Shown here one piece after another: positions 43 to 52,841 of a DNA stretch of 64,000 nucleotides. Within the stretch, counting starts at the first letter, position 1; each line of letters opens with the position of its first letter. The position numbers and the translations under genes were made by a program. This DNA comes from a virus. Taxonomy: Duplodnaviria; Caudoviricetes. A model generated the notes under the pieces. It did not search any database and was not told where the DNA came from. It saw only the letters and a list, made by a program, of their open reading frames with translations. Location of the stretch: positions 18,164 to 82,163 of IMG/VR virus record IMGVR_UViG_3300033463_000075; one strand, written 5' to 3'.

Positions 43-531
43 TTAGTCTTTAGTTAGTGGATTTAATATAGGTGCATCTGTCCAAGTAGCTGGTGCATAC
101 TTAGGTGCTTTAGATTCATCTGTGTGCTCTTTAATAAACTCTGTCTCTTTTTCATCATAGTAGTGCAAACGATATTTTCTTGCATCTTCACTTAAGAATA
201 ATATTATTAGCACATATCTTTTGAAGTTAGTGTTTATAGCTAGCTTATATTCAAGCCCCTTAGACCACTTCAGAGTTCCAATTAAACCATCTATTTCATA
301 CAAGTTATCATTGATGCTATATTCTATATCGGCTTCAGTTTTTGGTAGCTCCATATAACAGAAGTTATAATCTATAAGACCTTTAGCTTTAGCTTCTTCT
401 TCAGTGCATATAATATCACCATATTGTTCCTTAACTGCTTTCTCAGCCATTGGTATAAATTCTTCTCTGCTTACTGCCTTAGGTGCTAAATTTGAAAGCT
501 CATCATATGTATCATTAAATGTATCTGGCAT
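43..531 (-). CDS. hypothetical late protein with capsid-targeting-like N-terminus (162 aa)
   Basis: Track ORF 43..570; start moved to ATG 531 (SD GAGG; late motif lies at 560-568); TAA stop. Confidence 0.75.
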   Translation of the reverse strand: MPDTFNDTYDELSNLAPKAVSREEFIPMAEKAVKEQYGDIICTEEEAKAKGLIDYNFCYMELPKTEADIEYSINDNLYEIDGLIGTLKWSKGLEYKLAINTNFKRYVLIILFLSEDARKYRLHYYDEKETEFIKEHTDESKAPKYAPATWTDAPILNPLTKD

Positions 532-559
532 TTTTATAACCTCACAAAAAGTAATCGTA

Positions 560-568
560 TAATTTAGC
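560..568 (-). promoter_or_regulatory. GCTAAATTA putative late promoter
   Basis: Exact copy of recurrent intergenic motif, 29 nt upstream of ATG 531. Confidence 0.7.
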
Positions 569-603
569 ATATTTATGCAAGAAAAAAGTAAGCATCTTTC
601 AGC

Positions 604-996
604 TTACTTTACTTCTACATCAAATAGCTTATGTACCTTCTCTTGCACTATCCAAAAGGCTGTCATTAGCTCTGTAGGTTGCTGTTTACTTGAAAGCTTT
701 TCTTCTAAACATTTTAATGCCTCATCAAGTATGAATGCTTCTTGCTGTGTTAATTCAAGGTTTAATGTTTTGTTATATTGCTGTGTTGGATCATACTTAT
801 TACCTTCTTCATCATTATATTCTATATAGCAAGGTTTCTTGTATCTAATCTTTTCAAATGCTCCTAATTTGCAAGATGGACAAACATAATAATTATTTTG
901 ACAGCCCTCAAAGTTATAGTCTACATCATCTACATACATATCATTTCCACAGCGTGGACAGCTTAATTTATGTGTATATTCATTTCCTATACTCAT
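604..996 (-). CDS. zinc-ribbon hypothetical protein
   Basis: CPRC...CPSC motifs; TAA stop; no TGA. Confidence 0.75.
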   Translation of the reverse strand: MSIGNEYTHKLSCPRCGNDMYVDDVDYNFEGCQNNYYVCPSCKLGAFEKIRYKKPCYIEYNDEEGNKYDPTQQYNKTLNLELTQQEAFILDEALKCLEEKLSSKQQPTELMTAFWIVQEKVHKLFDVEVK

Positions 997-999
997 AAT

Positions 1000-1203
1000 T
1001 TATTTCTCCTTATTTTCTTTAAGTGATAATGTTTTAGTTAGTAAATCAAAGCAGTCATTACATAAAGACATTTGCATAATATCATGCTCTCTATTTATAG
1101 CATCCACCCAATATGTTGTTATTGTTATGCACTCTTCATTGTCCTCAATACTTTTACAGCAACTATTACAACAACCGCCTAATTTCTCTTTTATTCGAAA
1201 CAT
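1000..1203 (-). CDS. small Cys-rich hypothetical protein
   Basis: CCNSC...CNDC; SD GGAG; TAA stop. Confidence 0.65.
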   Translation of the reverse strand: MFRIKEKLGGCCNSCCKSIEDNEECITITTYWVDAINREHDIMQMSLCNDCFDLLTKTLSLKENKEK

Positions 1204-1274
1204 TATAGTTCTCCTCTATCACTTAGCGCTCCTACTCTGCAAAAGCACCCTAATATAAATAGTGTAATCATAAT

Positions 1275-1601
1275 CTAAATCCTCATATTATTTATTACTG
1301 ACCAAGGTGTTTCCTTTTCAGCCAATTCTTGTCCTGCTTCTTTTGGCACATCACTAAATAAGTCACTTGGTGATAAGCTTGAAACAAACCCACAATGAGG
1401 ACATTTCCTTCCTAAAGACTTTAGAGAAAATTGCTTTGGATCTACCTTATAATCATCTTCAGTTCTATTAGCTCTTTCATAGGTAGCTTCACTTTCTAAT
1501 GCAAAATAAATCTTATGACAACAAGGACATTCAAGTGTTCTTATCTTTTCACCTGTTTTTAAAGCTTCATTAGTTACTTCTTCTAAGTTAGTATAATTCA
1601 T
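1275..1601 (-). CDS. zinc-ribbon hypothetical protein
   Basis: CPCC...CPHC; SD GAGG; TAG stop. Confidence 0.75.
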   Translation of the reverse strand: MNYTNLEEVTNEALKTGEKIRTLECPCCHKIYFALESEATYERANRTEDDYKVDPKQFSLKSLGRKCPHCGFVSSLSPSDLFSDVPKEAGQELAEKETPWSVINNMRI

Positions 1602-1609
1602 ACTTGCCT

Positions 1610-1867
1610 CTATGGATTCACCATTATTATTATGTGTTGATCATGCACACCGTAAAGTGCAATCTCAGGCTTTCCATCTTTTGGCTTTTGCACAGTAACT
1701 ATATATAGTTTGTCTATTAAGTCAGGTCTATCATTCATTATTCTATGATAATCTATACCTGCTCTAAAGTCATAAATTATAAGCTTTCCTTCTGGTCTAA
1801 CTTTTAAAAAGTTATCTAATGCATCATAAATATTTTGGTATCTTAAATCATTTAATTCTGGTGTCAT
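1610..1867 (-). CDS. hypothetical protein
   Basis: Track 1610..1963; more likely start ATG 1867 after SD GGGAGG; TAG stop. Confidence 0.65.
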   Translation of the reverse strand: MTPELNDLRYQNIYDALDNFLKVRPEGKLIIYDFRAGIDYHRIMNDRPDLIDKLYIVTVQKPKDGKPEIALYGVHDQHIIIMVNP

Positions 1868-1881
1868 ATTAGCCCTCCCCT

Positions 1882-2631
1882 TTATGCTGCCATTCCTAAA
1901 GCTCTTTTCACTGTTGACATTGAACAAGGTGATACAATACCTCTTGCTACATTTTCTGCACAATTACCAGATAAAAATTGAATACCTAATACTTTGCTAT
2001 GACTATTTATAGCACTAGTTACCTTATCAACCTTTAAGCCAGCTACAGAAGAAACTACTTTATTTATAAACCATTCTACATTATTCACTTGAATAACTGC
2101 TGTCTGTGGGTTTATCTCAACTGCATTTGTTTTTACTTCTGTATTAGTTGCATCTTTAATTTGCATCTTTGCTACACCATAATCAGCCATAGTAGCTGTC
2201 TCTTCAAAAGCAGTGCTGTCATCTTGCTCAGCTTCTTTGCTTGAATATAGTGTTAAGTCACATAATGCTTTTAGCTTAAACCTACTCTTAGCCGGTATCT
2301 CTGGCAGGTCATCTAAGCTTAGCGTATTTAGCTGGCTAGCTAAAGATTTCATATTAGTTCTAAAAGATAAGTACTTCTTCATTTGCTTTATAAACTTTGC
2401 TTCTTGAATAGCAGTTAAATTACCCATTCCAATAATATGATAAAAATCTACCATAATTATTTCAGTCATAACTGCTGATTCTTTTTTGCAAAACTCTCTT
2501 AAAGCAGATAAATCTTTTAAGGTCATATTAGCTAGATCTTCCGTTGTTTTAATGTTAGCTAAATACTTTTCACATTCAGTTATTCTTGTTTCTAATGCAG
2601 TTGTAATCTTGTCAAAACTTTCTTTAATCAA
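1882..2631 (-). CDS. hypothetical protein (249 aa)
   Basis: TTG start with GGAGG SD; long open frame; TAA stop. Confidence 0.8.
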   Translation of the reverse strand: MIKESFDKITTALETRITECEKYLANIKTTEDLANMTLKDLSALREFCKKESAVMTEIIMVDFYHIIGMGNLTAIQEAKFIKQMKKYLSFRTNMKSLASQLNTLSLDDLPEIPAKSRFKLKALCDLTLYSSKEAEQDDSTAFEETATMADYGVAKMQIKDATNTEVKTNAVEINPQTAVIQVNNVEWFINKVVSSVAGLKVDKVTSAINSHSKVLGIQFLSGNCAENVARGIVSPCSMSTVKRALGMAA

Positions 2632-2747
2632 TTTAAAGCACCTCCATAATCGCTCATAATATTATACAGCACTCCTAAGTCAAAATAACCATTTTGTTTC
2701 AAATTTTAAGTGAATAAAAAACTTTGCACAGATTTTACATTTATATG

Positions 2748-2776
2748 TTTACTTTTTGTGCATTGTGTTGTATAAT
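2748..2776 (+). promoter_or_regulatory. sigma70-type promoter
   Basis: TTTACT-N17-TATAAT upstream of SD AAGGAG and ATG 2801. Confidence 0.65.
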
Positions 2777-2800
2777 ATATAAAGAAGGAGATGATGAAAT

Positions 2801-3256
2801 ATGATTAGAGACGAAGCAGTAAAATTAATTTATAATGTAAAATTAATATCTGCACCTTTATATGGTGAATATAAAGAAAAGTCAGATTTTAGCCATATTC
2901 TTTGGGAAAACTGTACTACACATAGTAAAGAAAAAGCTGAATATAAATATGATGTTTTTATAAAAATAGCAACTTCTAAAGCTTTACATCATGCAAAGAA
3001 TACACCATTGCATAAATATAAAGTTGTAATGACAGTTGCTGAAGAAACATTAACTGAAAGCATACAAAATAAAACTATTATAAAAGAAGAAGAAGTCTAT
3101 GATAAGACTTCTACATATGAGCTTCCTATTAAAGTTAGAGATAATACAGGTCAAACTGAAACAAAACTTGTAAAAGTTGAGCTTCCTGATATTTTAGATA
3201 GAGGACAATCACATATGACCTATATAAATAGGCAAATAGAATTAGCTAGGCAATAA
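2801..3256 (+). CDS. hypothetical protein; only convincing plus-strand gene
   Basis: Own promoter, SD AAGGAG, TAA stop inside a terminator hairpin. Confidence 0.8.
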   Translation: MIRDEAVKLIYNVKLISAPLYGEYKEKSDFSHILWENCTTHSKEKAEYKYDVFIKIATSKALHHAKNTPLHKYKVVMTVAEETLTESIQNKTIIKEEEVYDKTSTYELPIKVRDNTGQTETKLVKVELPDILDRGQSHMTYINRQIELARQ

Positions 3257-3269
3257 ACCTAGCTAATTC
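3239..3269. terminator. probable bidirectional terminator between convergent genes
   Basis: Perfect 12-bp stem GAATTAGCTAGG/CCTAGCTAATTC, 7-nt loop, T-rich flank. Confidence 0.75.
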
Positions 3270-3285
3270 TTTTGTTATTATTTTA

Positions 3286-3990
3286 TTAAATATTTACTAC
3301 AAGCTTGCTATTTATAGTATCAATTAGCTTTTCTGCAGAGGCTTTATCAATAGCTTTTATATCATCCAAAGCTTGTTGTATTTCATTGTCTTCTTCTACT
3401 TCTGCTTCTGGGATAAGTTGAAGTCTTATATAATCTTTTTGTTCATCTGTTAGTGGCTTTCTATATTCATCTTCTAACTTATCAATTCTCTTTTCTATAG
3501 CTTTAGCTATTTTGCCTTTTTTATACTTTTGTAGTTTATCTACAAACTTATTGTAAAGCTTTTTAATTGCAGCTCTGCCAGTCTTAGAAGTTAAGCACAC
3601 TCCTGCTGCAGTAAGCCCACTAAATAGAAGTGGCAATAACCAGCTTGTAGTTGGGTTTACAGCTATACCTAAAATACCTGCTACTAAAAATATATTTTCT
3701 TTAACAAATTCGGCGGCTCCTGCACTTGCAATTCCACCAGCAACTTTATCTATAAGTAGCTCAGCATCATCACCTAAAGCTTTATTAGTTTCTTTATCTT
3801 TAAGTGCAAGTAAATCAGCTTTCATATCAGACAACTTTTTAGCTTCAGTTAAAACAGTTTCTAAGCTATCTAAATTAGCCAATAATTCAGCATCACTTAT
3901 AGGTTTAATTTCTGCTTCTTCATTTATGAATTCAAGCAAAGAATAAACATCATTAAAGTTATCTAAGTTGTCATATAACTTTTTATCCAT
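3286..3990 (-). CDS. putative membrane-associated virion/internal protein
   Basis: Hydrophobic stretch IFLVAGILGIAV...LLPLLFSGLTAAGVCL; capsid-targeting-like N-terminus; TAA stop. Confidence 0.75.
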   Translation of the reverse strand: MDKKLYDNLDNFNDVYSLLEFINEEAEIKPISDAELLANLDSLETVLTEAKKLSDMKADLLALKDKETNKALGDDAELLIDKVAGGIASAGAAEFVKENIFLVAGILGIAVNPTTSWLLPLLFSGLTAAGVCLTSKTGRAAIKKLYNKFVDKLQKYKKGKIAKAIEKRIDKLEDEYRKPLTDEQKDYIRLQLIPEAEVEEDNEIQQALDDIKAIDKASAEKLIDTINSKLVVNI

Positions 3991-4874
3991 TATTCTTCCT
4001 CTTGCTCAAGTGGCTCAGTATAAACTAAGTCATGATCTTCTTTAACTTTTTCTAAAAATTCCTTATGAGCTATTTCTTCAGTTTTAATCTTTTCTAGTTG
4101 CTCTTTAACATTGGCATCTTCATCATCTAAAGCGGCAATAATTAAATCATAGCCATCAATAGCTTCTTGTTCATCAGCTGCTAAGAAGTCCATTTTATCT
4201 TCAAAGCTTTCTGGTATTTCTGGCTCTTCTTCAGCATCCTCAGTTAAGCTTTCTTTTGTAGCTACTGTAGCAGCTTGCACAGAATTTGCAAAGCCTTTAA
4301 CAGCGTCATTTATAGCTCCATTGTAAGCAGGGTCTTTAAGCATATCCATTATTTCTTTTTGTATCTCTTCTAAAGTCTTTTTTGGATTCTTCTTAAATAA
4401 GTCTTTTAATATTCCTTCATTAAGATCTTCATCAAGCCAGCCTCTACTCTTTAAGTATGCTTTTGTTTCTTCCATTGTTTTAAAGTCTTTATTGCAGCGT
4501 CTCCATTGGCCTTGGTCTCTTATTCAAGCACTATATGGGTTAGCAATTAAGCCACCACCATCATTGCATAGTATCTTGTATAAGCTTCCTTCTTCAACTA
4601 CATTTTTTAATTGGACATCTTCATTAATAGGCTCATCCATAATGCTATTGATTTGGAAGTTTGGGCCCAATTCTTTCTTGTAGTTAATAAGCATAGTTGT
4701 TATGTCATCAATGCAATCTGGATGTTCTTTTTTATAAGCAGCCTTAAATTCCTCTAATTCTTTTAAATTAGTAATACCAATATCATACGCAAGTCTTAAT
4801 GTATACTCACCTGCTGAAATTGGGCTCTCATTTAATGCTGTTAGTTCTTCATAAACACTGTTAAATTCTTTCAT
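3990..4874 (-). CDS. 294-aa protein with C-terminal ferritin-like (ExxH) helices, via 1 TGA
   Basis: TGA 4524-4526 joins track ORFs 4524..4874 and 3990..4475 in frame; DEQEAIDGY...KTEEIAH motif. Confidence 0.75.
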
Positions 4875-5391
4875 TTATATCTCCTTTCTTGTTTCTTGCA
4901 TAGCTATCAGTTTGTGTATGGCAATTTGGGCATAATATTTGCAAGTTATCTAAAGTATTGTTTTTCTCATTTCCATCTTTATGATGAAGCTGCAAAGTAA
5001 GCTCCTTGCCATTTCAAATAGGACCTTGACCACATTCTTCACATCTATAAGGTCTTCCAGTAGCTACTAATCTTCTTAAAGTATTTTGGTTATTTCTTGC
5101 CTGATCTAATGTATAATAATCAGCATCGGAAGTTTCTCTATTAAACTTACTAAAATCTAAACCAAATTCATTTCCAACAGCTTTTATAAGCTTAGCTGTT
5201 TTTTCTGCAATTTTATTTTGTCTTTCACCAATTAAAGTATAACCAAGATCTTTTGCAAGCTGATAAAAATATTTATAGCTGTTAACTCTATCTTGGTCTC
5301 ATTCACCACTAGCAAAAGCTCTTCTTGCTAAGCTGTCAGTTTCTTCTTCATATAATGAATCTAGCTCTTTAAATGTGTCTTTTAGCTCCAT
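4861..5391 (-). CDS. HNH endonuclease (176 aa, 2 TGA), absent from ORF track
   Basis: CEECGQGPI[TGA]NGKELTLQLHHKDGNEKNNTLDNLQILCPNCHTQT; SD AGGAG; TAA at 4861-4863. Confidence 0.85.
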
Positions 5392-5423
5392 TTAGTAACT
5401 CCTAAAAACTACTATCGTCGTAA

Positions 5424-5432
5424 TAATTTAGC
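5424..5432 (-). promoter_or_regulatory. GCTAAATTA putative late promoter
   Basis: Exact motif between terminator and ATG 5391. Confidence 0.7.
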
Positions 5433-5440
5433 AAAAAAAA

Positions 5441-5464
5441 TAGCCTTAATTTTCATTAAGACTA
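5441..5464 (-). terminator. intrinsic terminator
   Basis: TAGTCTTAAT/ATTAAGGCTA stem (one G-U) followed by T8 on minus strand. Confidence 0.75.
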
Positions 5465-5549
5465 TCTTTGTTAAACAAATTGCTTATTATATTCCTTTTA
5501 CTAGTTCTTGGGCTTATTATGAGCTCATACTAACCTTTCAGCAACTTGC

Positions 5550-5828
5550 TTATCCTTTTGCAAAAATCTTTGGTCTTATTGGAAAGCTTATATCATCAGC
5601 TTTAATAAATTCAGCTATTGCTAAGACTTCATCAAAAGTTAAATCTGTGCTAAATGAAAAGCCTTCACCTAAAGTTGAATCAGAGCAGTAAACTGTTTTA
5701 GCTACCTTATCAATCATAATAGTATGCAAGTATTTTTCTCTTGCATCATCTTCTATCTCTTTTTCGAACTCAAAATAATCTGGGTCCTTATAAAGTTTTC
5801 TTCTAAAACCTAATTCTTCAAATGTCAT
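5550..5828 (-). CDS. hypothetical protein
   Basis: SD AGGAG; TAA stop. Confidence 0.7.
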   Translation of the reverse strand: MTFEELGFRRKLYKDPDYFEFEKEIEDDAREKYLHTIMIDKVAKTVYCSDSTLGEGFSFSTDLTFDEVLAIAEFIKADDISFPIRPKIFAKG

Positions 5829-5913
5829 ATTATATCTCCTTTTATACGTAGGCCCCCGGCATATTATATATTTATAACCTATTAAAAGCTATAAAATAAG
5901 GGGGGGGCTATAA

Positions 5914-5994
5914 TTATTTCTTCATTATAAATGCAAAGTTAATTGCACTAAATACTAAGCTTACTATTGCTAAAATTAAAGCTGTAATCTCCAT
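5914..5994 (-). CDS. 26-aa hydrophobic peptide
   Basis: MEITALILAIVSLVFSAINFAFIMKK; tightly coupled to upstream gene. Confidence 0.5.
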   Translation of the reverse strand: MEITALILAIVSLVFSAINFAFIMKK

Positions 5995-5997
5995 AAT

Positions 5998-6096
5998 CTA
6001 ATTCTCCTCATCATTATGTTGTTCAACACCTCTCATGAATAAGATTGCTGAAACCATTATAATAGCTATACAAATAAAACCTACTACTACTTTCAT
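5998..6096 (-). CDS. 32-aa single-TM peptide
   Basis: MKVVVGFICIAIIMVSAILFMRGVEQHNDEEN; ATG 1 nt after upstream TAA; TAG stop. Confidence 0.55.
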   Translation of the reverse strand: MKVVVGFICIAIIMVSAILFMRGVEQHNDEEN

Positions 6097-6097
6097 T

Positions 6098-6637
6098 TTA
6101 TTCTTTCTCCCCAAGTATTTGTTCAACTAAGCCTACGACCTCATTATAGCCCGATTCACAGCCTTCGGTAGTAAAGTAAGATATTTTCTCAGCATCTAAT
6201 AATTCTCTTGTCAGTGTGTCAATATCTTTAGCTTCATCCTCAGTTTGATTTCGGCCATTAGGGTTATATGGCTTAACTCTTTTTAACATAATATTTATAT
6301 TGTTATTTTTATATCTATTAAACTCTTCTATCATAGCAGCTTTAAGCATTGGTCGGTCAGGGCTACAATATAAAGCACCTAAAATAATTGGGCTGTCAGT
6401 GATAATAACATCAACCTTACCGAAGCATCTGGCTACTCTCCAGCTTTGTTTTCCTGTAATATAAAATTGATTTTCAAAGACTTGTTTATTTCCTTCCCAT
6501 ACTTTGTCTTTTGCAAATTCAGGGATATATTCTGCATCATATCCTGCCATCTTTAATCTGCTAAAAATGTAAGCTGCTCCTGTGCTCTTTCCACAACCAG
6601 GTCCTCCAAACAAATTTACAATAAGTGTATCTTTCAT
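6098..6637 (-). CDS. P-loop NTPase/kinase (NadR/AAA_28-like)
   Basis: Walker A GGPGCGKST; VIITDSP; no TGA. Confidence 0.8.
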   Translation of the reverse strand: MKDTLIVNLFGGPGCGKSTGAAYIFSRLKMAGYDAEYIPEFAKDKVWEGNKQVFENQFYITGKQSWRVARCFGKVDVIITDSPIILGALYCSPDRPMLKAAMIEEFNRYKNNNINIMLKRVKPYNPNGRNQTEDEAKDIDTLTRELLDAEKISYFTTEGCESGYNEVVGLVEQILGEKE

Positions 6638-6638
6638 T

Positions 6639-7172
6639 TTATTCTCCTAAAATTATTTTATTCATTTTATCTAAATAAAGCATTCTATTATTTAGTGGTC
6701 TAAAATCTGGCGCAGCTTGAAGTGCTAAAGAAAAAATATCTACACACCCAACCGTATTAGCTTCAGCCCAATAAGCTTCATGCTTCATTCCCATTTTATG
6801 ATAAAGCTTACAAGCATCAAAGTTATCATTTAAGCTTGTATAAAGCCTCATATAAGCAAATCCTTGGTGTGCAAAATAATTTATGCTATTTGTTAAGATT
6901 CGCTTACCATAGCCTTTATTTCGCTTCTCAGGCATAACTCCAAACCAACCAAGCCAAGCTTCATCTAGATAGTCTTTATAAACATATATGCCAGTCATTC
7001 CAACAAGCTCTTTATTATCATAGACTAAATAATAATTAGCATACTCAATAAAGTCTAAATCAGTTAAGTCAATTGGTATAGCTTTAGAAAAATCTTCATT
7101 AGGAAAAATATCTTGCTGAGCCCTTTTTAAATCTAAGACATCTTCTTTAGTAATCAGCTTATACTCAAGCAT
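6639..7172 (-). CDS. GNAT family N-acetyltransferase
   Basis: FGVMPEKRNKGYG acetyl-CoA motif; LYHKMG motif; no TGA. Confidence 0.85.
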   Translation of the reverse strand: MLEYKLITKEDVLDLKRAQQDIFPNEDFSKAIPIDLTDLDFIEYANYYLVYDNKELVGMTGIYVYKDYLDEAWLGWFGVMPEKRNKGYGKRILTNSINYFAHQGFAYMRLYTSLNDNFDACKLYHKMGMKHEAYWAEANTVGCVDIFSLALQAAPDFRPLNNRMLYLDKMNKIILGE

Positions 7173-7360
7173 TATTTCAACCTCACTTTAATATCTAAGT
7201 CATATTTATGGCCTGCATTTTCTCTTAGCTGATATAAGCTTTGTGCTTCCACTTGTAAGCGAGCCAAAGCATCTCGATCATTTTCAAGCATTGCTCTAAG
7301 TGTCTTAACAAAAAGCTCTTCATATGCTATTTCTATCTCTCGTGTATAATCTTTCTTCAT
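7172..7360 (-). CDS. hypothetical protein
   Basis: Downstream of TGTATAAT -10-like site; coupled to next gene. Confidence 0.65.
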   Translation of the reverse strand: MKKDYTREIEIAYEELFVKTLRAMLENDRDALARLQVEAQSLYQLRENAGHKYDLDIKVRLK

Positions 7361-7381
7361 ACTATATTATACAATAAAAAA

Positions 7382-7404
7382 GAGCCAGATTTTTAGTCTG
7401 ACTC
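7382..7404 (-). terminator. intrinsic terminator ending baseplate operon
   Basis: GAGTCAGA/TCTGGCTC stem then T6. Confidence 0.75.
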
Positions 7405-7425: not shown

Positions 7426-7842
7426 TTAAATTTTTTTCCTTGATAATATTTTATAAACAGTTTCCATAGGATATTCATACTCATCATCTCAATTAGTATG
7501 GTCATAGTCTACTGTATATTCTTGGCTTATATCTTCAAAAGTAATTGTTATCTCTTTTTCTCTGCCACCCTTAAACTCATGAAACTCACCTGAAAGTATT
7601 AGCTCATCGTCTGTCTCATCATAAATATCATCTTTGCTTAAATAAAAATGACAAGGGTCATAAGCTTCATTCATGTGCTTAAAATATTCAACTTGTTTTA
7701 GTCGCTTCTCAGCTTCTTCTTTAGTATCATAAGTGCCCATGTTTCTGCCTTTCTCAGACTGCACTTGTCACTTACTGCCAAGCTTTACAATACGCTCCTG
7801 AAGCTGTGATAGCTCTTCATAAACCTCATCAAATGTGCTCAT
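7426..7842 (-). CDS. hypothetical late protein (138 aa, 2 TGA) with capsid-targeting-like N-terminus
   Basis: RIVKLGSK[TGA]QVQSEKGRNMGTYDTKEEAEKRL; TGA 7768 and 7489; TAA 7426. Confidence 0.75.
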
Positions 7843-7846
7843 AATA

Positions 7847-9034
7847 TTATGTTACTGATTTTTTAGTTATAGTTAGCACACCATCACTGTATGATACATC
7901 AATAGACCCATTAATATTAACTGTGCCTTTTATTTGTGTAGTTACACCATTAGTTCCTATGGTTGTATTACATGCATTTGCACCTGTATTTATGTTAGTA
8001 ATACCTGTAATTGATGTTGTATCTGTAATGGTTGTTCCACTATCATTTATTGTAAGCTTATTACTATTATCACGTTGTATATTTACACCTAAGTTACCTG
8101 GCGCATTTATGGTTATTGCACCATTTTTTATATCTGCACCATTTTTCGCTGTAAGCATGCCTGTAATTTCAGTGCCGCTATCTTTTACTGTAATACAGCT
8201 ATTTGCTGGGTTTTTGCTCTCAATAGTAATATTATCAACATTGTCATTAGCTTTAATTTTTGTAGCATTTATGTTAGTAGTACTTAAACTATTATCTATT
8301 ATTATTGTTTGTGTCGTGCTGCTGCCTACAGATAGTTGTTGGCCAGCAGCTATGTTTACAGGTTTATTAAAATTGATTTTATGTTTTAATATCTCTGCAC
8401 TATATACAGTATTATTGCCAGAGCCACCTAATGCTATTTTTGTGTCACCATTTATAAGTGTGTCACCATCATTGCTGCCATGGTTTATCTCTGGAAGTAA
8501 TGATTTATAATTTATTACGACTTTGCCACTAGTTAAAGTATCTTGAAATACCTTAAGTGTTATTCCATTAAAATTTGAAGCATCATAACCAATACCATGG
8601 AAATAATATTTATCACTATCGCTAGGGTGGTCTGGATCAATAGTTTTATCCAAGCATAGTGCAGATCCATCAATAGCACCAGTGTCTTTTAAGTAAGCTA
8701 GCACCTTTGTTTGATTATTATCACCGCTACTAATTGTTTTATCAACTGTATTAATACATAATGTTAATCCAGCTAACTCAGCATCTGTTTTATCAGATAG
8801 GTCTATATAAAAATAGTATCCTCCTAAAACACAATATAACTTTTTATTATCATTACTTATATCATACTTAATTAAATAGCTAGGTTTTCAGTGGCTGCTT
8901 GGTGTATTTGTAAAGTTAAATTCAGACTGAATTATTGCTTCAGCATTAAAGTAATATGTTTGGTCTCCAACTTTATATGAGCCCCTATATGCACATGGGA
9001 ATACATTAACATTTTTACTTAAAAAAAATTTCAT
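7847..9034 (-). CDS. putative tail fiber/baseplate-associated beta-rich protein (395 aa, 1 TGA)
   Basis: ATG 9034 with SD GGAG; TGA 8888; Thr/Asn/Gly-rich C-terminal half; last genes of baseplate operon. Confidence 0.65.
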
Positions 9035-9056
9035 ATTTATCTCCTTATAGCATTAT

Positions 9057-9632
9057 TTATGCTTTTGATATATCTTGCAGTGTCATTGTTCAGTCAATAA
9101 CTAACGAATAGTTAGATTTCAAGTCTGATAGGTCGATGGCATCCTCACTATCAGCTCACTGATTAGTACTGCTGTCTATAAATAAATATTCAGCACTTCT
9201 ATTACTTATCTTAGACTCACTGCTATTGGTATCACAGTACAAAGCTAATTTATAAATAATTTGTTTTGAGCTACCTTCTTTTAATGTTATAAAAGCATAA
9301 GGTATTTTAAAGTGGTAAGTAGCACTGCAGCTATCACTGGTAGATTCTAAAAGCATACCAGGTTCATGTAGTATAGCAGCAGACCTACATGTTTCTTTTG
9401 AAAAATCTGGATTAGCAGGTGTATCTGTCTCTGGGTCAACTACAGTAAATAGTCTAATTCTGCAAGGTCGTAGTTCATCATAATAAGCGCCAGTTAAGCA
9501 GTAGCCTAAAAATTTAAATAAAGGTTCTTTTCCTTTATTATGTGACTCTGAGCTAAATAATACTTTATTATTAGGCCCGATAACACTTATTTTTACATGT
9601 CCTTCATATGATATTATGCTATTTGTATCCAT
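9057..9632 (-). CDS. baseplate-region hypothetical protein (191 aa, 2 TGA)
   Basis: Readthrough of TGA 9156 and 9090 to TAA 9057; ends YSLVID[W]TMTLQD. Confidence 0.7.
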
Positions 9633-9649
9633 ATTATAATTTAATCCTA

Positions 9650-10351
9650 TTAATTATTATTATTTTCTTCAGTTTCGCTTTCATCTGCTGGTTTATAAAT
9701 TGTGCTATTTGAAATATAACCTTCTTTATCTGAAACACCAAATCTATTATAGTTATCTGATAATGGCTTAATTTTATCTGGCTGAATAATTTTTGCATAA
9801 TTATTATAGTCTATATCTTTACCAATAATAGTATGCTCTACTGAATCGGCTGTATGTGTGTATATCGTAATAGCATTGCTACTTGCAATAGTTTCTTTTA
9901 CAAAAGTACAAGACATACCAGCTGGAAGTATATAATCTAGCAAATCCCTAAGTAGAGTAATATCATTAAGAGTACTTGGCAAATAAAGTGTTATATTTGT
10001 ATTTTTAATTGCATAGGCTGTTTTGCTTCTAATACCTTCGGCATTTAGCACTGCATTACAGACGCTTATAATACTTTGTATATTTCCTTTATTTTTTAAA
10101 GCATAGCTAAATACATTACATAAAGCCGTCAATTGAGCTATATTATAGTTATGTTTTGACTTAAAGCCTAAAGTCATCGCTACTAGGCTTAGTAGTTGTG
10201 AATCAGTATTTCTGTCAAGCGGTAAATAGTTTATAAGCTCAGTATTTGTTTTTATAGAATTTAAAACTAAATCATATAGTCTTCCAATAAATTGAAAGTC
10301 TCTTGATTGTCTATAGTATACATTTGGTGTAAGTTCTTCTAATTTAATCAT
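9650..10351 (-). CDS. baseplate wedge protein (P2 gpI/T4 gp7-like)
   Basis: LLSLVAMTLGF...LKNKGNIQSI pattern; follows the gp6/J-like gene. Confidence 0.65.
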   Translation of the reverse strand: MIKLEELTPNVYYRQSRDFQFIGRLYDLVLNSIKTNTELINYLPLDRNTDSQLLSLVAMTLGFKSKHNYNIAQLTALCNVFSYALKNKGNIQSIISVCNAVLNAEGIRSKTAYAIKNTNITLYLPSTLNDITLLRDLLDYILPAGMSCTFVKETIASSNAITIYTHTADSVEHTIIGKDIDYNNYAKIIQPDKIKPLSDNYNRFGVSDKEGYISNSTIYKPADESETEENNNN

Positions 10352-10355
10352 GTTA

Positions 10356-13300
10356 TTATATTTTTGAAGATAATGTTAGGGTTATACCTTTTGATAGATA
10401 ATCAGCATCAAGTTCAGATATTACAAATTTATTATTTATATTATTATAGTCATATCAAGACAATGCTGACTTTAATGTTACGGTATCATCATTACTATTT
10501 AAATCAATTTGATTAGAGCTGTCTAAATCAGCTGAATAGTAAAAAGCATGTGTTGTATCTATTGATCTAATTTTAGCTAAAATATCTGCTAAGCGTTTAA
10601 CATCATCATCTCCAGCATAAGCCAATTTTGGATTGATGCCCTTAACTGTTTTTAATATATCAAATATTAGTGCATAAGCAACAACAGCATCTGTTGGTTG
10701 ACAAATACTTATATTACAATCTTCTGTAAATTTTATCATATTAATTCCAGGCTTCAAGTAATAAAAGTCGCCTATGCTGCTCTCTATATGATAATTAGGC
10801 CACCACGTTTCTACAGCTGTTTCTTCTCCAGTTTCAGGATCTGTCTCATACAGATTATAAATTACTAGTGGTTTTGTTGATGTAGTAGTAATATAACAGT
10901 TATTAGTTATATCTGTATCTGATGGTGCAGTATTATAGATCATCATTAAACCATAGTTAGTCTCAGAAACATCTCGTATATTTAATTGTCTGCTATCAGG
11001 TTGACCACCTTTATTAATAGTTAATATAAGTTTAGTTAAGTTAGTACCATAGTTATTTACTTCAGCTTCTTGAATAGCCTGACTATCCAATGTCTTTTTT
11101 CTAATCTTAAAATCACTTACTTTAGTTTCTGTGCCATTAGTAGTAAGTTCCCTGTTGCGTGTATCAACATAACTGTTAGCAGTATTACATATATAGTCAG
11201 CATTAAGAACAAGTGGATTTGTATCATTACCAGCTAATTCTGTAGGTGTATCTACATCTATTTCTTTTTCTTTTCCAGTTTCAGGATCTATTTCTTTTTC
11301 TTTATAATAAATAGATATACTATCAAAATTATGTAAATATTGATCAATAGCCGGCCCCATATTTATTTGTAATATACTGCGGGCTTCTCATGATATATCA
11401 GTCATATTAAAAGTGGATAATGGGGTATCCTCACTATCTTTATATTTGTAAGAGGCACTTTTAATTGGTGTAAATGTTTGAGTTAAGCTATTAGCACCAA
11501 GGTTTGTAAATTCAATAGCAGTAAGTGCATCACCTTCACCTAATGTAATATATTGATATTCATTTAGCGTTAAGTAGTCTGAGTCAACTGTTTGATCATC
11601 GCTATGCACAAAAGTATATTGTCGTCATGGAATAGCTGCAGATAAGCCTTGCTCTAATATCTCTTCGGCACTGATTTCAGTATCAGATAATTCTTTATAA
11701 ATAGGCTGAACGCCATAGTGCACAATTTGAGTGCCGCTGCTGTATACTACAAAATCAGTCTTATTAATGTCTGTATAACATAGATATTCGCCATCCTTAA
11801 GAGTATAAGCTCTACCATTATCTTCATCAAATGTAAATATAATTCTATTATTGTTGTCTACATGTGAAGCCTCATCGTTTCTATGTCAATATAAGAAAGT
11901 ATATGCTTTGTCTAAATCTACTAATGACTTATTTATAACTTCAATTTGGTCATTGGCACCCAATGAATACATTTTTTCTAATGTTTGTTTACCACTTGGA
12001 GCATCATTAAATGGACCTATATTTTGAGCATTTACCTTAGTGCTGCCTGTTTGATTATATAAATCAAAATTAGGTCTAATAATAAGGTTATCATTAGCAT
12101 CATAATATTCATATTTAATATCAGATGTTGTTGTGCCATCAGAATCTGTCGTTGTAGTTGTATATTTAATATATAGCTCATCATCGCCTTGTAGCTTGTA
12201 GACTGTACCAGCAGAACATACAAGTGCTCCTTCATTCACACGTGTAGTTCTAAAGAAATACCAAACATAAGCAGAATATGTTTTACTTGTTCTAAAGTTT
12301 GGAGCTCTAAATTGTATTAGCTCATTTTGTTTTAATTCTAGTGGTAATGTAATAGCACCTTCTCCGCTAAACTTTGGAGTAAAAGCTGATGTTAAGTGGT
12401 CAATAATATAAGCTGGATTTACAACATTAGGATAAATAGCTGTTGTATTAATATTATAACTATAAGCAAAGTCATCATTATAAGCTAATAGTGGTATTCT
12501 GCCAGCTAAAACGTTATTTAATACTAAAGCATTATAAGTTTTGTCATATTGCTCTTTATTGTTAACTTCAGTAAGTTCTGTTCCATTTACTAAACAAAAA
12601 GCGGTAATTAATTTAGGGTCATCTGACCAGTATACATCTTTAATTCTGCTATCAGCATTTTTAATGCACTCAAGCATAACTTCCATTGGTATTTGTTCGC
12701 CAAATTCAAGCATTCTCATATTAAATTCTGCATATAGAGCTTTATATACATTATTTAATATTAGTTGCTCTTCTATACTATTTACTTTTCTTATAGTAAC
12801 AATTTTAGCATTAAGTCTAACATAGTTTTTAATACAAGCTATATCAGTAGAATCTGGTTCAATAATATTATGAGCAATAGTTTTATTTGCAGCTAAGTTA
12901 GCCTTAATTTCATAGTTATTAATAGCTGTATACTTAAAAGAATTCAAGTAGTCATCTTTCTTACCTAGATTAAAGTATGTTTTGAATGGGTAAAGCACTA
13001 AATCAAAACTATTTATTAAAGGCACTATTTCTTTATTAGCATTTTCTGCTTCTTTAGCTATGTTTTGATAACACATACCATATTCACTGAATGTACATAA
13101 TGTAACAGCCTTATTTATATCATCTCTAATATCTGATACAATAATATTAGATACAAGTGGCGTTGTATCTGTATCACTTGTAACCATCTGATAAATCTTA
13201 TTCATATAATCTCTGCAAGTGACTAAAGTATCAAATGTGCCAATAGTCTTTTTATAGCTATTATAAGCTTGATTAATCGTCTCAGGATTTGCACCATTTG

Positions 13301-14192
13301 TAGCAGCTGCAGTGTTTGATACACTATAATCTGAAGTAGTGTCTGTATCTGACCAGCTTTCTGGTTTCTCTAGTTTTGTTAAAACACCAGCAGAAATATT
13401 ACCATTTACCCCATTTGTTCGTGTGTATCTTATATATAAGCCATCTTCTATAATATCATTTATATCTTCAGGAAATTGGATATATGGCATTTGTTTAGAT
13501 GAGCTATATCCAAACTTATATATTTTTTTATCTAGTGGTTGAGTATTTAAGTTATCAACACATTCCCATAACTCACTTAAAAAGCCATCACTATAATTTT
13601 GAACAAATATACCATTTTCAGCAATTTTATCTTCTGGTAAGTAATATCTGTAATTATCATCTAATAGGGCAACAGAAATAATGTTGTCATCATCTGACTC
13701 GCATTCGCAAAGTTCACCTTCCATAACTTCTACAGCTTTTGATGTTTGCTCTGTTGTTAATGTGATTGGTGCAAGTGTAAAATAGTTTATATCATCTTCA
13801 TTATTTTTAATATTCGTAAAAGCATCAATAGTTTTACCACTACTTGGAAGTGCCCCTTCACCTTTATATGAGATATTAACTGTTGTAGTGGCTGATTGAT
13901 AATATTTCATAGTATAACCAAGCATATCACAAAGTCTTCTCATAGATTCCTCTTGTGTAGCTGATGGCATATAGGCTTCAAGTATATTTTTATCAATATT
14001 ATAATTAAGTTTATCGCCCAAAGCTGCTAAAACTTTTAATAATACAATACCAGGGTCAGCTTCATTTGTTGAAGTTGGATCTCATCTATTTGATATTTTG
14101 CCAGCTGTATCTAAAAGCTCATTCCATATTTGGTAAAAGTCTTTCTTTGTTGGTGATAAATCTACAGCAGTTATTTCCTTGTTAGTAATCAT
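10356..14192 (-). CDS. large baseplate wedge protein (T4 gp6/baseplate J-like; 1278 aa, 5 TGA)
   Basis: KDFYQIWNEL...NR[TGA]DPTSTNEADPGIVLL...EAYMPSATQEES...MLGY; TGAs 14082, 11886, 11625, 11388, 10455 all in frame; TAA 10356. Confidence 0.85.
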
Positions 14193-14201
14193 TTATTACT
14201 C

Positions 14202-14594
14202 CTATCTTATATTATCATTTTGTTCAAATAGCACTAAGTTAAAAGTATTAGTTTGATAGTCTATTTGATTAATTGCTCTAAAATTACAATATAGCACACC
14301 CTTTTCTTTATCTTGCACGATTTCAATATTAGCTCTTTCTACTTTTATTTGAGGCACAAAAATTGCAAGCTGTGTATAAATCATATCTGCGATGGTATCT
14401 CTAAGTATTGGGCTGTTTTGATTAAATAGATAATACTTAAAAAGCAAGCCTCAATATGGGTCGCAAAAAAGTTCTCCACGTTCTGTACTCAATGTTAAAA
14501 TAGTATTTTGTTTAGTAGCAGCTAGATATTCACTGCTCTTTCAAACTCGTGTGCTATTTGTATTAAACATTTTTGGAAACTTAATTGATTGCAT
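14202..14594 (-). CDS. baseplate gp25-like protein (130 aa, 2 TGA)
   Basis: LTLSTERGELFCDPY[TGA]G...FVPQIKV; adjacent to wedge gene. Confidence 0.8.
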
Positions 14595-14618
14595 TTTATA
14601 CTTCCTTACTAAACTATA

Positions 14619-14627
14619 TAATTTAGC
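14619..14627 (-). promoter_or_regulatory. GCTAAATTA putative late promoter
   Basis: Exact motif 25 nt upstream of ATG 14594. Confidence 0.7.
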
Positions 14628-14653
14628 AATTTATTTATATAAATTTAATAAAT

Positions 14654-22358: not shown

Positions 22359-22967
22359 TTAGCCTTCAATTTGTTCTGGTAATACCATTACAGCTCTGTC
22401 ATAAGCAAAGTTAACAGTAATTTGACGCTTACCATCTGAAGCTCTATCAAATGAATCTTCTGTTAAGCCTGTAATAAAGCAACCTTCAAGGTCCCAACGT
22501 CTAATTTCTTCATAGTCTTGTGTATACTCAATTAAGTGGCAAGTTTTCTTATAGTCTTTCATTCTTCCACCCTTACGTGTATATGGGTCATAAGCAAGAC
22601 GTAGCCAAGCCATAAGTAATGACTTTGTATCTAATCCTACATAGTCATCAACTGTTAACGAACCATCACTGAATGTTGGAACACCTGCAAAATTGATAAC
22701 GTCATTACCACGTCTATATTGTAGTTTTTCAACTGAATAATGTGGAACGTCAGCTTTAGTAACTGCTAACTTAATATCTTCAAAAGCTTCTGAAGCAGCG
22801 TATTTATTAGCTTCTGTTGCATTAGCAGGATCTCCTGTATATGTAGGCTTTAATAGATTTCCTAATTCTTCTTGACTTACTGTGAATAGGAAGAAACCTG
22901 TTCTGGCTGATTCATAGGCAGCAAGATTTGCACTTATGTGATCGACATTTAATCCATTTAAACTCAT
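22359..22967 (-). CDS. tail tube protein (T4 gp19-like)
   Basis: Follows sheath; FAGVPTF...LMAWL...YKKTCHL...RRWDLEGCF; no TGA. Confidence 0.85.
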   Translation of the reverse strand: MSLNGLNVDHISANLAAYESARTGFFLFTVSQEELGNLLKPTYTGDPANATEANKYAASEAFEDIKLAVTKADVPHYSVEKLQYRRGNDVINFAGVPTFSDGSLTVDDYVGLDTKSLLMAWLRLAYDPYTRKGGRMKDYKKTCHLIEYTQDYEEIRRWDLEGCFITGLTEDSFDRASDGKRQITVNFAYDRAVMVLPEQIEG

Positions 22968-22986
22968 TGTTCTATTTCTCCTTTAC

Positions 22987-24495
22987 CTATTCTAATTCAT
23001 CCATATTTACAGCAACACCTTTAATTGAGTCTTCCATATTAATACCAATTTTAAAGTCTTCAACACCTTCAATTGGCACAATTCTGATTAAACCTTTCAT
23101 TGTTGCTTTTAATTTTGTATTAACTTTTACAAACTTATAATCTTCAACACCTTCATCAGCTTTCATTCTCTTTAATGTTGGTTCTATAGCATCGCAGAAT
23201 TTAATCCATAATAATGAACTATTTGGATCAAATGTAAACTTCTTGCAGGCATAATATGTTTGTTTCTTTAATGTAGCTAGTAATTGTCTAATATTTAGGA
23301 AGTCACTAAACTTTAGTTCATCCCCAATAGCATTAGCTGTTCTATTACCATATAAATAATAATTATTATGTGATTTAATAATTAAATTAACAGCTTTTTT
23401 AATATTACCGTTGCCATTTCTTGGTTGTAATAAATCAGCAGCTAATTCACCAAAGTTATAGCCCGTTTGTAAAATGGTATATTTGCTTACGCCTCTTTCA
23501 TATCCAGCAACTGGCCACCATTCATTATAACCTAAATTACCAAATGCATTTGCAGCACAAGCTAAATAATAGAATGAACCTGGAAATACTGTATTTTCAT
23601 AGTATTCGTCTTTTATATCTAAGCTAACATATGGTGCAAAGAAAGATGAAAACTTATTACTATCTGAAATTTTTGAAATATCAGCATTAATATTGGCAAT
23701 AGTTTGTGATAGTGTTGTAGCACTACTAGGTGCATAATTTATTTTAGATATATCCAATAAAGCGATAATATCTCCACGACCTGATGTTGTGTAATCCGCA
23801 TTATTTATATAAGTAGCTAATTGTGCTATAGCATTATTAGCTATTGTATTATTTTCAAGTAAACCAGTTAAAATATATCTAAATTGATAAACTGATTTAT
23901 CCTTTAGTGGTTCTAGAAAAGCAATAATACTTTCACTATCAGTTATATCAGCTATTGTTTCCAATTTTTTATATAAAACAGTATAGCCAAGACCAAGCAA
24001 CTCATAGGCAATCTGATTACCATAATGAAGCTCACCATCTGTACCTTCATTTCCCGGTGTAATTATAGCATAAAAAATTTCAACGCTACTTGATACACTT
24101 GGCTCAACTACTGCACGTTCATATTTATATTGCTTATCGTGTAAATAGCCAACTGCAGGGCTACTTGCTTCAACAGCTATATAAAGTTGATTATTTCTAA
24201 AATATTCTAAAGCAAGGTCTAAATTAGCAGCAGTAATAGTATTTTGGTTGCCAGACCAGCCATACTCAACATTTTCATAGAAATCAGGTCCTTTTGGATC
24301 ATATCTTTGAGAAAGTTTTCCAACATACTTGATAAAATCAGCCTGTGTGCTACACTCAAAAACACCGCTACTGTCAGCAACTTCTGCATATTTTTCAGTA
24401 TTTTTTACAAAGCCTGGTACAACAACTGAAAAGTTAGCATATGCAGCTACGCCTGTTGTAGAAAGATCATATTCATTAATTATTACATTAGGCAT
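22987..24495 (-). CDS. tail sheath protein (T4 gp18-like)
   Basis: WWPVAGYERG...YLYGNRT...FLNIRQL...FDPNSSLLW; TAG stop; no TGA. Confidence 0.9.
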   Translation of the reverse strand: MPNVIINEYDLSTTGVAAYANFSVVVPGFVKNTEKYAEVADSSGVFECSTQADFIKYVGKLSQRYDPKGPDFYENVEYGWSGNQNTITAANLDLALEYFRNNQLYIAVEASSPAVGYLHDKQYKYERAVVEPSVSSSVEIFYAIITPGNEGTDGELHYGNQIAYELLGLGYTVLYKKLETIADITDSESIIAFLEPLKDKSVYQFRYILTGLLENNTIANNAIAQLATYINNADYTTSGRGDIIALLDISKINYAPSSATTLSQTIANINADISKISDSNKFSSFFAPYVSLDIKDEYYENTVFPGSFYYLACAANAFGNLGYNEWWPVAGYERGVSKYTILQTGYNFGELAADLLQPRNGNGNIKKAVNLIIKSHNNYYLYGNRTANAIGDELKFSDFLNIRQLLATLKKQTYYACKKFTFDPNSSLLWIKFCDAIEPTLKRMKADEGVEDYKFVKVNTKLKATMKGLIRIVPIEGVEDFKIGINMEDSIKGVAVNMDELE

Positions 24496-24545
24496 TTTTT
24501 TCTTTTTCTCCTTAAAATTTGATAGGTGTTATCCTAAATATCAAT

Positions 24546-24554
24546 TAATTTAGC
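24546..24554 (-). promoter_or_regulatory. GCTAAATTA putative late promoter
   Basis: Exact motif upstream of sheath ATG. Confidence 0.7.
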
Positions 24555-24573
24555 AAATGATTTGCTTTAATTA

Positions 24574-31229: not shown

Positions 31230-32078
31230 TTATTTTAAGTTATTAGCATTTGGTATAACCATATGCAAATTATAAGCTTCATTAAATTCAATAATAGTAT
31301 TAGCTATACTTGCAACTCACTCTTTGAAGCCTACATAAGTTTTTGGTAGCTCCACTCTACTGTAGAAAGGCCAATCTGTTCTATTTCTTGTGGTGAAGTG
31401 TCATACTTTAATAGAAGGGTCATCTCACATGTAGCCGCAGTTTTCTAAGTGGTTCATAGCTCCATAATGATAGTCTAAGTGAAGCTCTGGGTGCTTATTC
31501 CAATCTCTGTACCAGTAGTTTAAAACACTTTGATCATGTCAAGAAACATTTGGGTTTAAGTCATCTATGTATCTAACTAAGTTATGTCCTAAATGAGGGT
31601 TTTCTTTAAAGTCTCATACAAACATACCTGAGCAAAAAATAGAAGCTCCCAAAGTATACTCAGTAATAAGTGGCTTTGGTGATCTATCTATAACTGCTGT
31701 CATGTGTGGCATATCCATAACTTCATCTATATTTTGCTTAATTCATTGGTCAGTGTCTAAATAAACTATCTTGTCAAACTTTTCCTCAACTTGTGTGTCA
31801 AATAAAGCTAGCTTAGGGAATGCACTTTTATATCAAGCTGTTAATCCACTTTCGTTAGTATTCTTGAGGGTACTTGTTGATAGTATAAAATTTGTATTAA
31901 GCTCTAATATGTTTATACCAACAGCTTGTAAAATCTGTCTTGTATTAGCATTAACATCTTTTGTTATGGCACAATAAATAGGGTACTTAGTTTTAGTATC
32001 CAATAGGTTTTTATACGCACCTAAAAGCATATAAATATAATAGTCATTAGAGCTTAAGAAAAACATTCAAGCATTCAT
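31230..32078 (-). CDS. glycosyltransferase family 8 (glycogenin-like; 282 aa, 8 TGA)
   Basis: FPKLALF...IVYLDTD...CSGMFV[W]...[W]HDQSVLN...KV[W]HF; TGAs 32067, 31833, 31743, 31614, 31539, 31425, 31401, 31317. Confidence 0.85.
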
Positions 32079-32091
32079 ATTAAATTATACA

Positions 32092-32970: not shown

Positions 32971-32979
32971 TATATTCCT

Positions 32980-47946: not shown

Positions 47947-47984
47947 TGTTTTTGTATCCTTTTTAATATTTTTTGTTTTTGTTG

Positions 47985-49820: not shown

Positions 49821-49861
49821 CTTTCGTTTTCCTTATTTTCTAATAAAAACTTTAAATCAAT

Positions 49862-49870
49862 TAATTTAGC
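49862..49870 (-). promoter_or_regulatory. GCTAAATTA putative late promoter
   Basis: Exact motif upstream of protease gene. Confidence 0.7.
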
Positions 49871-49919
49871 ATAAATTAGTAATAATATTTCTAAAAATTG
49901 TAAAGTTTGTGTAAATTAA

Positions 49920-52813: not shown

Positions 52814-52841
52814 TTTTGCTTCTCCTTATTTGTATTTAATT

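Follow-up and report, generated by a model that had tools for sequence, protein, structure and literature searches.

The stretch analysed here (64,000 nucleotides, hereafter the window) comprised bases 18164-82163 of one 82,163-bp virus contig (L001; positions with such a label are contig positions, all others are window positions). The subject of the study was the codon TGA, identified below as a tryptophan codon, and its uneven use among genes standing behind different promoter-like motifs, as first seen in the region 604-7360. The G+C content of the contig was 31-35%, and nearly all of its genes lay on the minus strand. The PHROG and Pfam assignments (large terminase, portal, head protease, major capsid protein, sheath, tube, baseplate hub and wedge) were those of a contractile-tailed phage. 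Genes for NrdD, NrdG, a DNA methyltransferase, a SNF2-type helicase and a nicotinamide mononucleotide (NMN)-adenylyltransferase-like protein were found 5′ of the window on the contig, and strong GGAGG ribosome sites and TTGACA/TATAAT-type promoters were present. Open frames of at least 100 codons spanned 60 kb with TGA as a stop and 80 kb with TGA as sense. TGA was carried by 39 of the 85 genes (46%), and no gene on the contig required it as a stop. In IMG/VR, the contigs with capsid relatives reached 233 kb, and six of 201-233 kb were scored 91-100% complete; the 82-kb contig therefore makes up about 37% of the genome of a low-GC jumbo myovirus of 200-230 kb from the bovine gut. Nearly all of the tested stretch (96%) was recovered from a single bovine-gut sample, in two of its runs; in bovine-gut RNA runs, small shares of the capsid region were present. 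GenBank phages gave no match in a megablast search with 17 kb from the window.

The features of the locus are listed in Table 1. In 604-7360, early-type units were interleaved with an operon behind the late motif. An earlier interpretation of this DNA, referred to here as the sequence-only reading, had proposed that the early-type genes avoid TGA completely. When the nine genes of 604-3256 and 5550-7360 were translated with genetic code 4, 10 TGG and 0 TGA were indeed counted, and the identities given for the GNAT and AAA_28/kinase-like genes were confirmed. The three TGA codons ascribed to the interleaved operon 5391-3286 were likewise recovered, two in the HNH gene (5299-5301 and 5014-5016) and one in gene 4874-3990 (4524-4526); W126 of the HNH gene, inside the HNH motif GPIWNGK, was a TGA codon. 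The proposed chance figure of about 0.001 agreed with the P(0/10) of 0.0013 obtained at the late-gene TGA rate of 0.48, and random draws of nine genes gave 0 TGA with at least 10 TGG in 0.4% of cases. The late genes were heterogeneous in their TGA use (chi-square p = 4e-4), and therefore the per-codon binomial overstates independence. As to the sigma70-like TATAAT sites ahead of these genes, their placement was sound (a divergent gap and terminator brackets), but no enrichment was found, with 37 consensus matches against 40.7 expected in shuffled sequence, so that the support for the promoter calls comes from the position of the sites. For the gene at 43..570, the true start is probably further in than the longest open reading frame call, because the late motif at 560-569 falls inside that call.

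Table 1. Transcription units, promoter-like sites and related features (window positions unless a contig or genome label is given)
Feature	Position	Strand	Content	TGA	TGG
Late-motif gene	43..570	-	TGCTAAATTA 560-569, inside longest open reading frame call	0	2
Terminator-like hairpin	585-610		at unit 604..2631
Early-type unit	604..2631	-	genes 2631-1882, 1601-1275, 1203-1000, 996-604, functions unassigned	0	4
Promoter-like TTGACT-N16/17-TATAAT	2656-2683	-	serves unit 604..2631; lies in divergent gap
Divergent early-type unit	2748..3270	+	TTTACT-N17-TATAAT 2748-2776; gene 2801-3256; terminator 3238-3270	0	1
Late-motif operon	3286..5433	-	TGCTAAATTA 5424-5433; genes 5391-4861 (HNH), 4874-3990, 3990-3286	3	3
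Early/middle-type unit	5550..7404	-	genes 7360-7172, 7172-6639 (GNAT), 6637-6098 (AAA_28/kinase-like), 5828-5550	0	5
Extended -10 TGTATAAT	7364-7371	-	heads unit 5550..7404; terminator 7382-7404 upstream
Baseplate/tail unit	7426..14628	-	late motif 14619-14628; six genes; ends at terminator 7382-7404, before early-type unit	12	7
Sheath-tube unit	22359..24555	-	late motif 24546-24555; tail sheath 24495-22987; tail tube 22967-22359	0; 0	4; 2
Most TGA-rich window genes	31230..35844	-	FrhB/pyruvyl-transferase fusion 35844-32980; 32970-32092; GT8 32078-31230	15; 4; 8	4; 0; 3
Protease-capsid unit	46627..49871	-	late motif 49862-49871; head maturation protease 49820-47985; major capsid protein 47946-46627	0; 0	3; 4
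Terminase-portal unit	50864..54910	-	TGTATAATATAAT 54903-54910; large terminase 54893-52842; portal 52813-50864	3; 1	8; 4
Late motif sites	560, 5424, 14619, 22252, 24546, 31148, 49862, 56790, 61396	-	window
Looser late motif sites	42941, 44936, 46540, 50251		window
TGTATAATATAAT sites	7364-7371, 46528-46535, 54903-54910; L001 ~6546-6553, 6644-6651		window and contig
RF-1-domain/tRNA-array/tmRNA loci of relatives	L105 (G001:109451-109780), L096:4154-4538

The TGA codons at residues 78 and 444 of the large terminase, residue 316 of the portal and residue 138 of the product of 55939-56784 aligned to tryptophan in nearly all of the 10-12 standard-code relatives, and a fifth TGA codon of the contig aligned to phenylalanine or tyrosine. 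Because TGA codons align to tryptophans that are invariant in standard-code relatives, TGA is, as judged from these alignments, a tryptophan codon in this phage. The tryptophan content was 1.16% in early and 1.01% in late genes only when TGA was counted. Code 25, in which TGA encodes glycine, was excluded, as TGA aligned to tryptophan or aromatic residues.

The genes were classed by the motif ahead of their transcription unit, so that the classes are those of promoter-like motifs. The late motif TGCTAAATTA had 12 copies in the window against 1.36 expected, 11 of them on the minus strand, and its looser form GCTAAATTW occurred in at least 12 intergenic gaps of the window. This conserved motif, (T)GCTAAATTA(W), stood 20-60 nt upstream of the structural operons; in a complete relative, G003, it was present in 32 minus-strand intergenic gaps. 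The third class, TGTATAATATAAT, was an extended -10 without a -35 and often ended 3-12 nt before the ATG, a short spacing suggestive of mRNAs with little or no leader. All three motif classes were found again in G003, and TGTATAATATAAT may mark a 'middle' class, because in that genome it lay ahead of replication and metabolism genes. Codon use can thereby be read per transcription unit without expression data.

Over the whole contig, the 25 early-type genes held 1 TGA and 41 TGG, and the 51 late-motif genes held 90 TGA and 96 TGG, which correspond to TGA shares of tryptophan codons of 0.02 and 0.48, respectively (Fisher p = 1.3e-9; gene-level p = 1.4e-6; label permutation p <= 1e-5). The contrast between expression classes drawn by the sequence-only reading from the first 7 kb was thus borne out contig-wide. 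Chance as the cause of the split was rejected by these three tests. The other NNA/NNG pairs were alike in early and late genes, with A shares of 0.57 and 0.64 for Lys, 0.75 and 0.79 for Glu, and 0.88 and 0.90 for Gln (0.57-0.99 over the other pairs, both classes together), and regional mutational bias was rejected because these pairs were equal in both classes. The late-gene TGA share of 0.48 was below the A-ending share of every other pair checked, from 0.64 (Lys) to 0.96. Conservation of the protein was likewise rejected as the reason why TGG is kept, since well-conserved late genes carried TGA, such as the baseplate wedge gene (72% identity to G003) and that of 16731-17057 (75% identity to G003). 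No early gene used TGA as a stop (0/25), which was uninformative, since standard-code relatives use TGA stops in just 7% of genes. Moreover, TGA was mildly enriched in the first fifth of genes (31/111 against 15/146 for TGG; Mann-Whitney p = 0.02; whole contig); TGA near gene starts would make an early translational block more effective.

The relatives were split into standard-code and TGA-recoded genomes, which were intermixed on the capsid tree, where well-supported branches forced at least 3-4 code changes. The large relatives (200-233 kb) possessed 13-34 tRNA genes each. A suppressor tRNA(UCA) was found in both TGA-recoded large relatives, G003 (223 kb, with terminal repeats) and G009 (230 kb, linear, scored 100% complete), and among the seven large relatives scanned for tRNAs only in these. 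In four of the others, three of which have standard-code capsid loci, no tRNA was cleanly called as tRNA(UCA); one of these three had an odd tRNA, read as 'tcac', and an odd one in the fourth relative, which is G+C-rich, was read as 'ca'. The G003 tRNA(UCA) showed a normal cloverleaf with discriminator G73 and stood right behind TTGACG-N17-TGTATAAT, a host-type promoter, which fits early synthesis and later accumulation. The use of TGA at late rates by replication genes, which would have spoken against the sequence-only reading, was not seen in G003, the nearest complete genome, where the polymerase, helicase and gyrase genes were TGA-free. The G003 block with PolA, DnaB, gyrase, Lon and FTHFS held 22 TGA and 121 TGG, and the structural block 143 and 50.

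On the 82-kb contig itself, no tRNA was found by ARAGORN (window and whole contig), by Rfam, or by T-arm or UCA anticodon-loop patterns; the Rfam search, at the gathering score and at E <= 1, gave only chance-level snoRNA/sRNA matches. An intron-split tRNA in this fragment was tested and rejected by these searches, and no group I intron or release factor was found on the contig. The contigs of the closest relatives (G006, G007, G008 and G010) contained no tRNA region. In addition, a scan of IMG/VR for the tRNA(UCA) pattern returned 24 matches including G003 and G009, and the missing part of this phage was not among ten others tested. These ten were other phages of about 60-165 kb (111-136 kb where complete); the NrdD of nine of them was 25-28% identical to that of this phage, and one had no match.

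The absence of TGA was not confined to early-type genes. The protease, capsid, sheath and tube genes, all behind the late motif, had 0 TGA among 13 tryptophan codons (P = 2e-4), and the homing-endonuclease-like gene behind the motif at 46540 had 0 among 9. With these late-motif genes and the unit 570-43 free of TGA, the equation of TGA-free with early-type did not hold: the absence of TGA does not mark a gene as early. The capsid gene had 0 TGA in all recoded IMG/VR loci scored except one partial contig (57-90% identity), and one recoded contig from a genome bin had a capsid gene with one TGA. Beside such TGA-free capsid genes, the terminase and portal genes used TGA at up to 8/11 and 4/4 of their tryptophan codons. 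Compared with the closest relative (90% capsid identity), TGG and TGA were flipped in 21 of the 65 shared tryptophan columns of late genes, and the capsid and protease columns were TGG in both phages (7/7). This fast turnover indicates that the retention of TGG is selected. A capsid gene that refuses TGA despite fast flips nearby argues for a real cost of UGA suppression, which in turn argues for a host that would still have release factor 2 (RF2).

The same observations bear on an explanation by dose rather than time, in which TGA decoding would be inefficient throughout infection and codon choice would follow protein amount without a discrete switch; early genes would need fast output from few transcripts, and the capsid protein would be made in huge numbers. 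The 13 TGG of the four late-motif virion genes fit this explanation, as do the TGA-free capsid genes of nearly all recoded relatives despite the fast turnover in their neighbours. The TGA-rich genes encode enzymes, a homing endonuclease, leucine-rich repeat (LRR) paralogues and fibre-like proteins, all likely present in few copies, and the G003 suppressor, having a host-type promoter, would probably be made from the start. However, the split followed promoter class cleanly (1/42 against 90/186), and small early genes of probably modest abundance were TGA-free as well. In G003, moreover, about 50 replication and metabolism genes were nearly TGA-free while the sheath and tube genes carried TGA, which is not predicted by dose alone. 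An explanation by dose without timing is therefore rather unlikely.

Mosaicism was considered as a historical cause, whereby the TGA-free modules (early units and capsid) would have been imported recently from standard-code members of the family. The intermixing of standard-code and recoded members on the capsid tree is compatible with this, and an LRR/glycosyl cassette found only in recoded relatives indicates that modules move. Nevertheless, the same partition was present over about 130 genes in the distant, complete G003 (72% capsid identity), and the capsid gene was TGA-free across relatives of 57-90% identity; repeated recent import of the same modules would be less parsimonious than selection. 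Mosaicism is thus scarcely credible as the cause of the pattern.

A standard-code Firmicutes host is likely on indirect evidence. TGA was carried by 46% of the genes; in the study of Borges et al. (bioRxiv 10.1101/2021.08.26.457843), the figure was 90% in phages of recoded hosts and 26-71% in phages of standard-code hosts. The low late-gene TGA share relative to other A/G pairs, the GGAGG ribosome sites and the TTGACA/TATAAT-type promoters point the same way. Six of the seven GTDB genome bins that held relatives had Firmicutes-type labels. In the five bins tested, rpoB was without in-frame stops, and RF2 was over the cut-off in four and a fragment in the fifth; two of the binned phage contigs were TGA-recoded themselves. 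The nearest cultured capsids were those of Bacillus, Listeria and Streptococcus phages.

The alternative is a native code-4 (Mollicute-like) host, to which the lineage would have moved recently from standard-code hosts, with TGG persisting where change is slowest. It would agree with the lack of a suppressor tRNA on the 82-kb contig, with the absence of any gene needing a TGA stop, with the Mollicute-like TGA shares of some accessory genes (15/19 and 11/12), and with three of the seven bins being small 'Bacilli'-labelled genomes. Those bins, however, had an rpoB without in-frame TGA and had RF2. Under a native code 4, TGA would be expected at the share set by A+T bias genome-wide, with no TGA-free class; 0.02 in early and 0.48 in late genes was found instead, while the other A/G pairs ended in A at 0.57-0.99 in both classes. 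At the turnover seen against the 90%-identical relative, the 41 early TGG and the family-wide absence of TGA from the capsid gene need selection and not lack of time. Furthermore, recoded relatives own a tRNA(UCA) and are intermixed with standard-code ones, and the nearest cultured relatives infect standard-code Bacilli. A native code-4 host is accordingly very unlikely. The argument of the sequence-only reading against such a host gained these indirect supports (TGA share, family codes, bins and cultured relatives).

Taken together, selection on when and how much each gene is translated probably sets the use of TGA in this phage. Genes on host-type promoters (TTGACA-like plus TATAAT, or the extended -10) would be read by unmodified host machinery that stops at UGA, and would keep TGG; the nucleotide-metabolism and replication genes would be in the same position. 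Genes behind the late motif would be read once phage tRNA(UCA) has accumulated, would tolerate TGA, and their TGG and TGA codons could flip freely. Suppression would compete with host RF2 and cost yield, so that the most abundant virion proteins would keep TGG, the capsid family-wide and the protease, sheath and tube in this phage too. A timed switch of the code during infection, in the order of events just described, is what we infer from the pattern. The partition is a clean, motif-resolved case of partial stop-codon reassignment and backs the published model in which infection would start in the host code and the code would change on the way.

Several observations weigh against this interpretation by timing. 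The timing classes are motifs only, the sigma70-like matches being no more frequent than in shuffled sequence. The contig has no tRNA, release factor or synthetase gene, so that the phage's own switch machinery is unseen, and co-binning is weak host evidence. The suppressor of G009 stood about 45 nt behind TTGCTAAATTT, a late-like motif; its promoter class therefore differs from that of G003, and no single timing scheme is evident. The large terminase gene lies directly behind a TGTATAATATAAT site, yet it carries 3 of the 4 TGA of its unit. A 574-aa gene with 11 TGA stands among early-type units, and in the non-structural part the SNF2-type helicase gene (L001:10086-11849) and a small Zn-ribbon gene upstream (11850-12152) have one TGA each. 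Finally, G003 is recoded more heavily, and there TGA does occur in the sheath, tube and protease genes (TGA/TGG 5/2, 2/2 and 3/0, against 0/4 in the capsid gene), so that only the avoidance by the capsid is general.

A combined scheme, in which the reassigned codon would govern dose in addition to timing, is possible but rather less likely than not. UGA suppression would be leaky against host RF2, and selection against TGA would scale with copy number. The capsid gene might then have stayed nearly TGA-free through at least three independent code changes, with sheath, tube and protease taking TGA only in the most recoded genomes and low-copy enzymes and fibre-like proteins saturating first. If true, TGA density would be a measure of virion stoichiometry and of how old the recoding is.

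The pattern is a good example of a published gut-phage phenomenon and not a new one. Borges et al. (bioRxiv 10.1101/2021.08.26.457843) described TGA-recoded large phages of cattle and other guts with close standard-code relatives, suppressor tRNAs and a prior depletion of TGA stops. Their Jade, Sapphire and Agate clades resemble this phage as low-GC large phages of animal guts, cattle included, in which TGA is a tryptophan codon concentrated in the structural and accessory genes, the replication genes being without it. They are alike in having close standard-code relatives, a tRNA(UCA) in the complete recoded members, predicted Firmicutes hosts, and TGA stops that are rare in standard-code relatives (7% in those of this phage). 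The likeness to the Jade and Sapphire clades (about 200 kb) in particular is one of genome size (relatives of 200-233 kb) and habitat only. In contrast to those clades, neither of the complete recoded relatives of this phage yielded an RF1 or RF-1 domain. The partition was resolved here by three promoter-like motif classes, and a late capsid gene avoids TGA, whereas the emphasis in that paper is on the recoding of structural and lysis genes. The additions of our study are modest, namely the resolution per promoter class, the near family-wide TGA-free capsid gene and the measured turnover of TGG and TGA. As a practical matter, code 4 is required for gene prediction in genomes of this kind, and a gene must not be called 'early' for lacking TGA.

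The crAss-like and Lak phages (Yutin et al., PMC7886860) are similar in that a stop codon (TAG or TGA) is reassigned in late genes only, with suppressor tRNAs and standard-code hosts. They differ in being an unrelated lineage with Bacteroidota hosts and in mostly reading TAG as glutamine; this phage has strong Shine-Dalgarno sites and TTGACA/TATAAT-type promoters, and the cultured phages closest to it by capsid infect Bacilli. Phages of natively recoded hosts (code-25 Absconditabacteria, Mollicute) share the use of TGA as sense, and this fragment has no suppressor tRNA; about 90% of their genes carry TGA, however, compared with 46% here, where whole promoter classes are nearly free of it. In the code-25 phages, TGA encodes glycine, unlike the tryptophan to which it aligns here. 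Bacillus phage SP-15, vB_BceM-HSE3 and Listeria phage LIS04 are large Firmicutes myoviruses whose capsid proteins belong to the same fold family and are 28-30% identical along their full length. They are very distant, and their record annotations, beyond which no closer look was taken, show no recoding.

Some minor observations were made on the suppressors and the translation genes of the relatives. The tRNA(UCA) of G009 (L103:2900-2995) was 96 nt long, with an additional hairpin in its variable region; the loop of this hairpin, AGUCCAAAC, duplicates the normal Trp anticodon loop. About 15 other rumen virus contigs (L133-L147) of about 60-165 kb showed this spacing, and a suppressor of this type thus seems to be common to different phage families. 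The G+C-rich relative G001 (50%), whose code is unclear from open-frame coverage, encoded a 379-aa RF-1-domain protein beside its tRNA array, together with a tmRNA; a tmRNA was found in the recoded G009 too (loci in Table 1).

Other observations concern single genes. The 574-aa protein among the early-type units (L001:14007-15731, minus strand; 2432-4156 bases before the window) was rich in Ser, Thr, Asn and Tyr, had TGA at 11 of its 12 tryptophan codons and gave no Pfam or PHROG match. Its gene, the most TGA-biased of the contig, lay behind a 558-nt gap without a clear motif; the protein looks fibre-like. The G003 orthologues of the helicase and Zn-ribbon genes likewise had one TGA each, at a different tryptophan position in G003; the TGA of the G007 helicase gene was at the same position as in this phage. 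The two homing-endonuclease-like genes were opposed, with 0 TGA and 9 TGG at 45061-46512 and 5 TGA and 2 TGG at 54930-55967, and a TGA-rich intron endonuclease, as in the published case, is not the rule here. Next to the capsid gene stood an array of LRR paralogues together with glycosyl/pyruvyl-transferase genes (31230-44909). The two transferase genes had orthologues only in TGA-recoded relatives, and in standard-code relatives the neck gene came directly after the capsid region. Finally, the AAA_28 (NadR-type kinase-like) and GNAT genes (6098-7172) and the 364-aa NMN-adenylyltransferase-like gene (L001:16290-17384) belonged to the TGA-free part of the contig, and these three may form a phage NAD salvage set.

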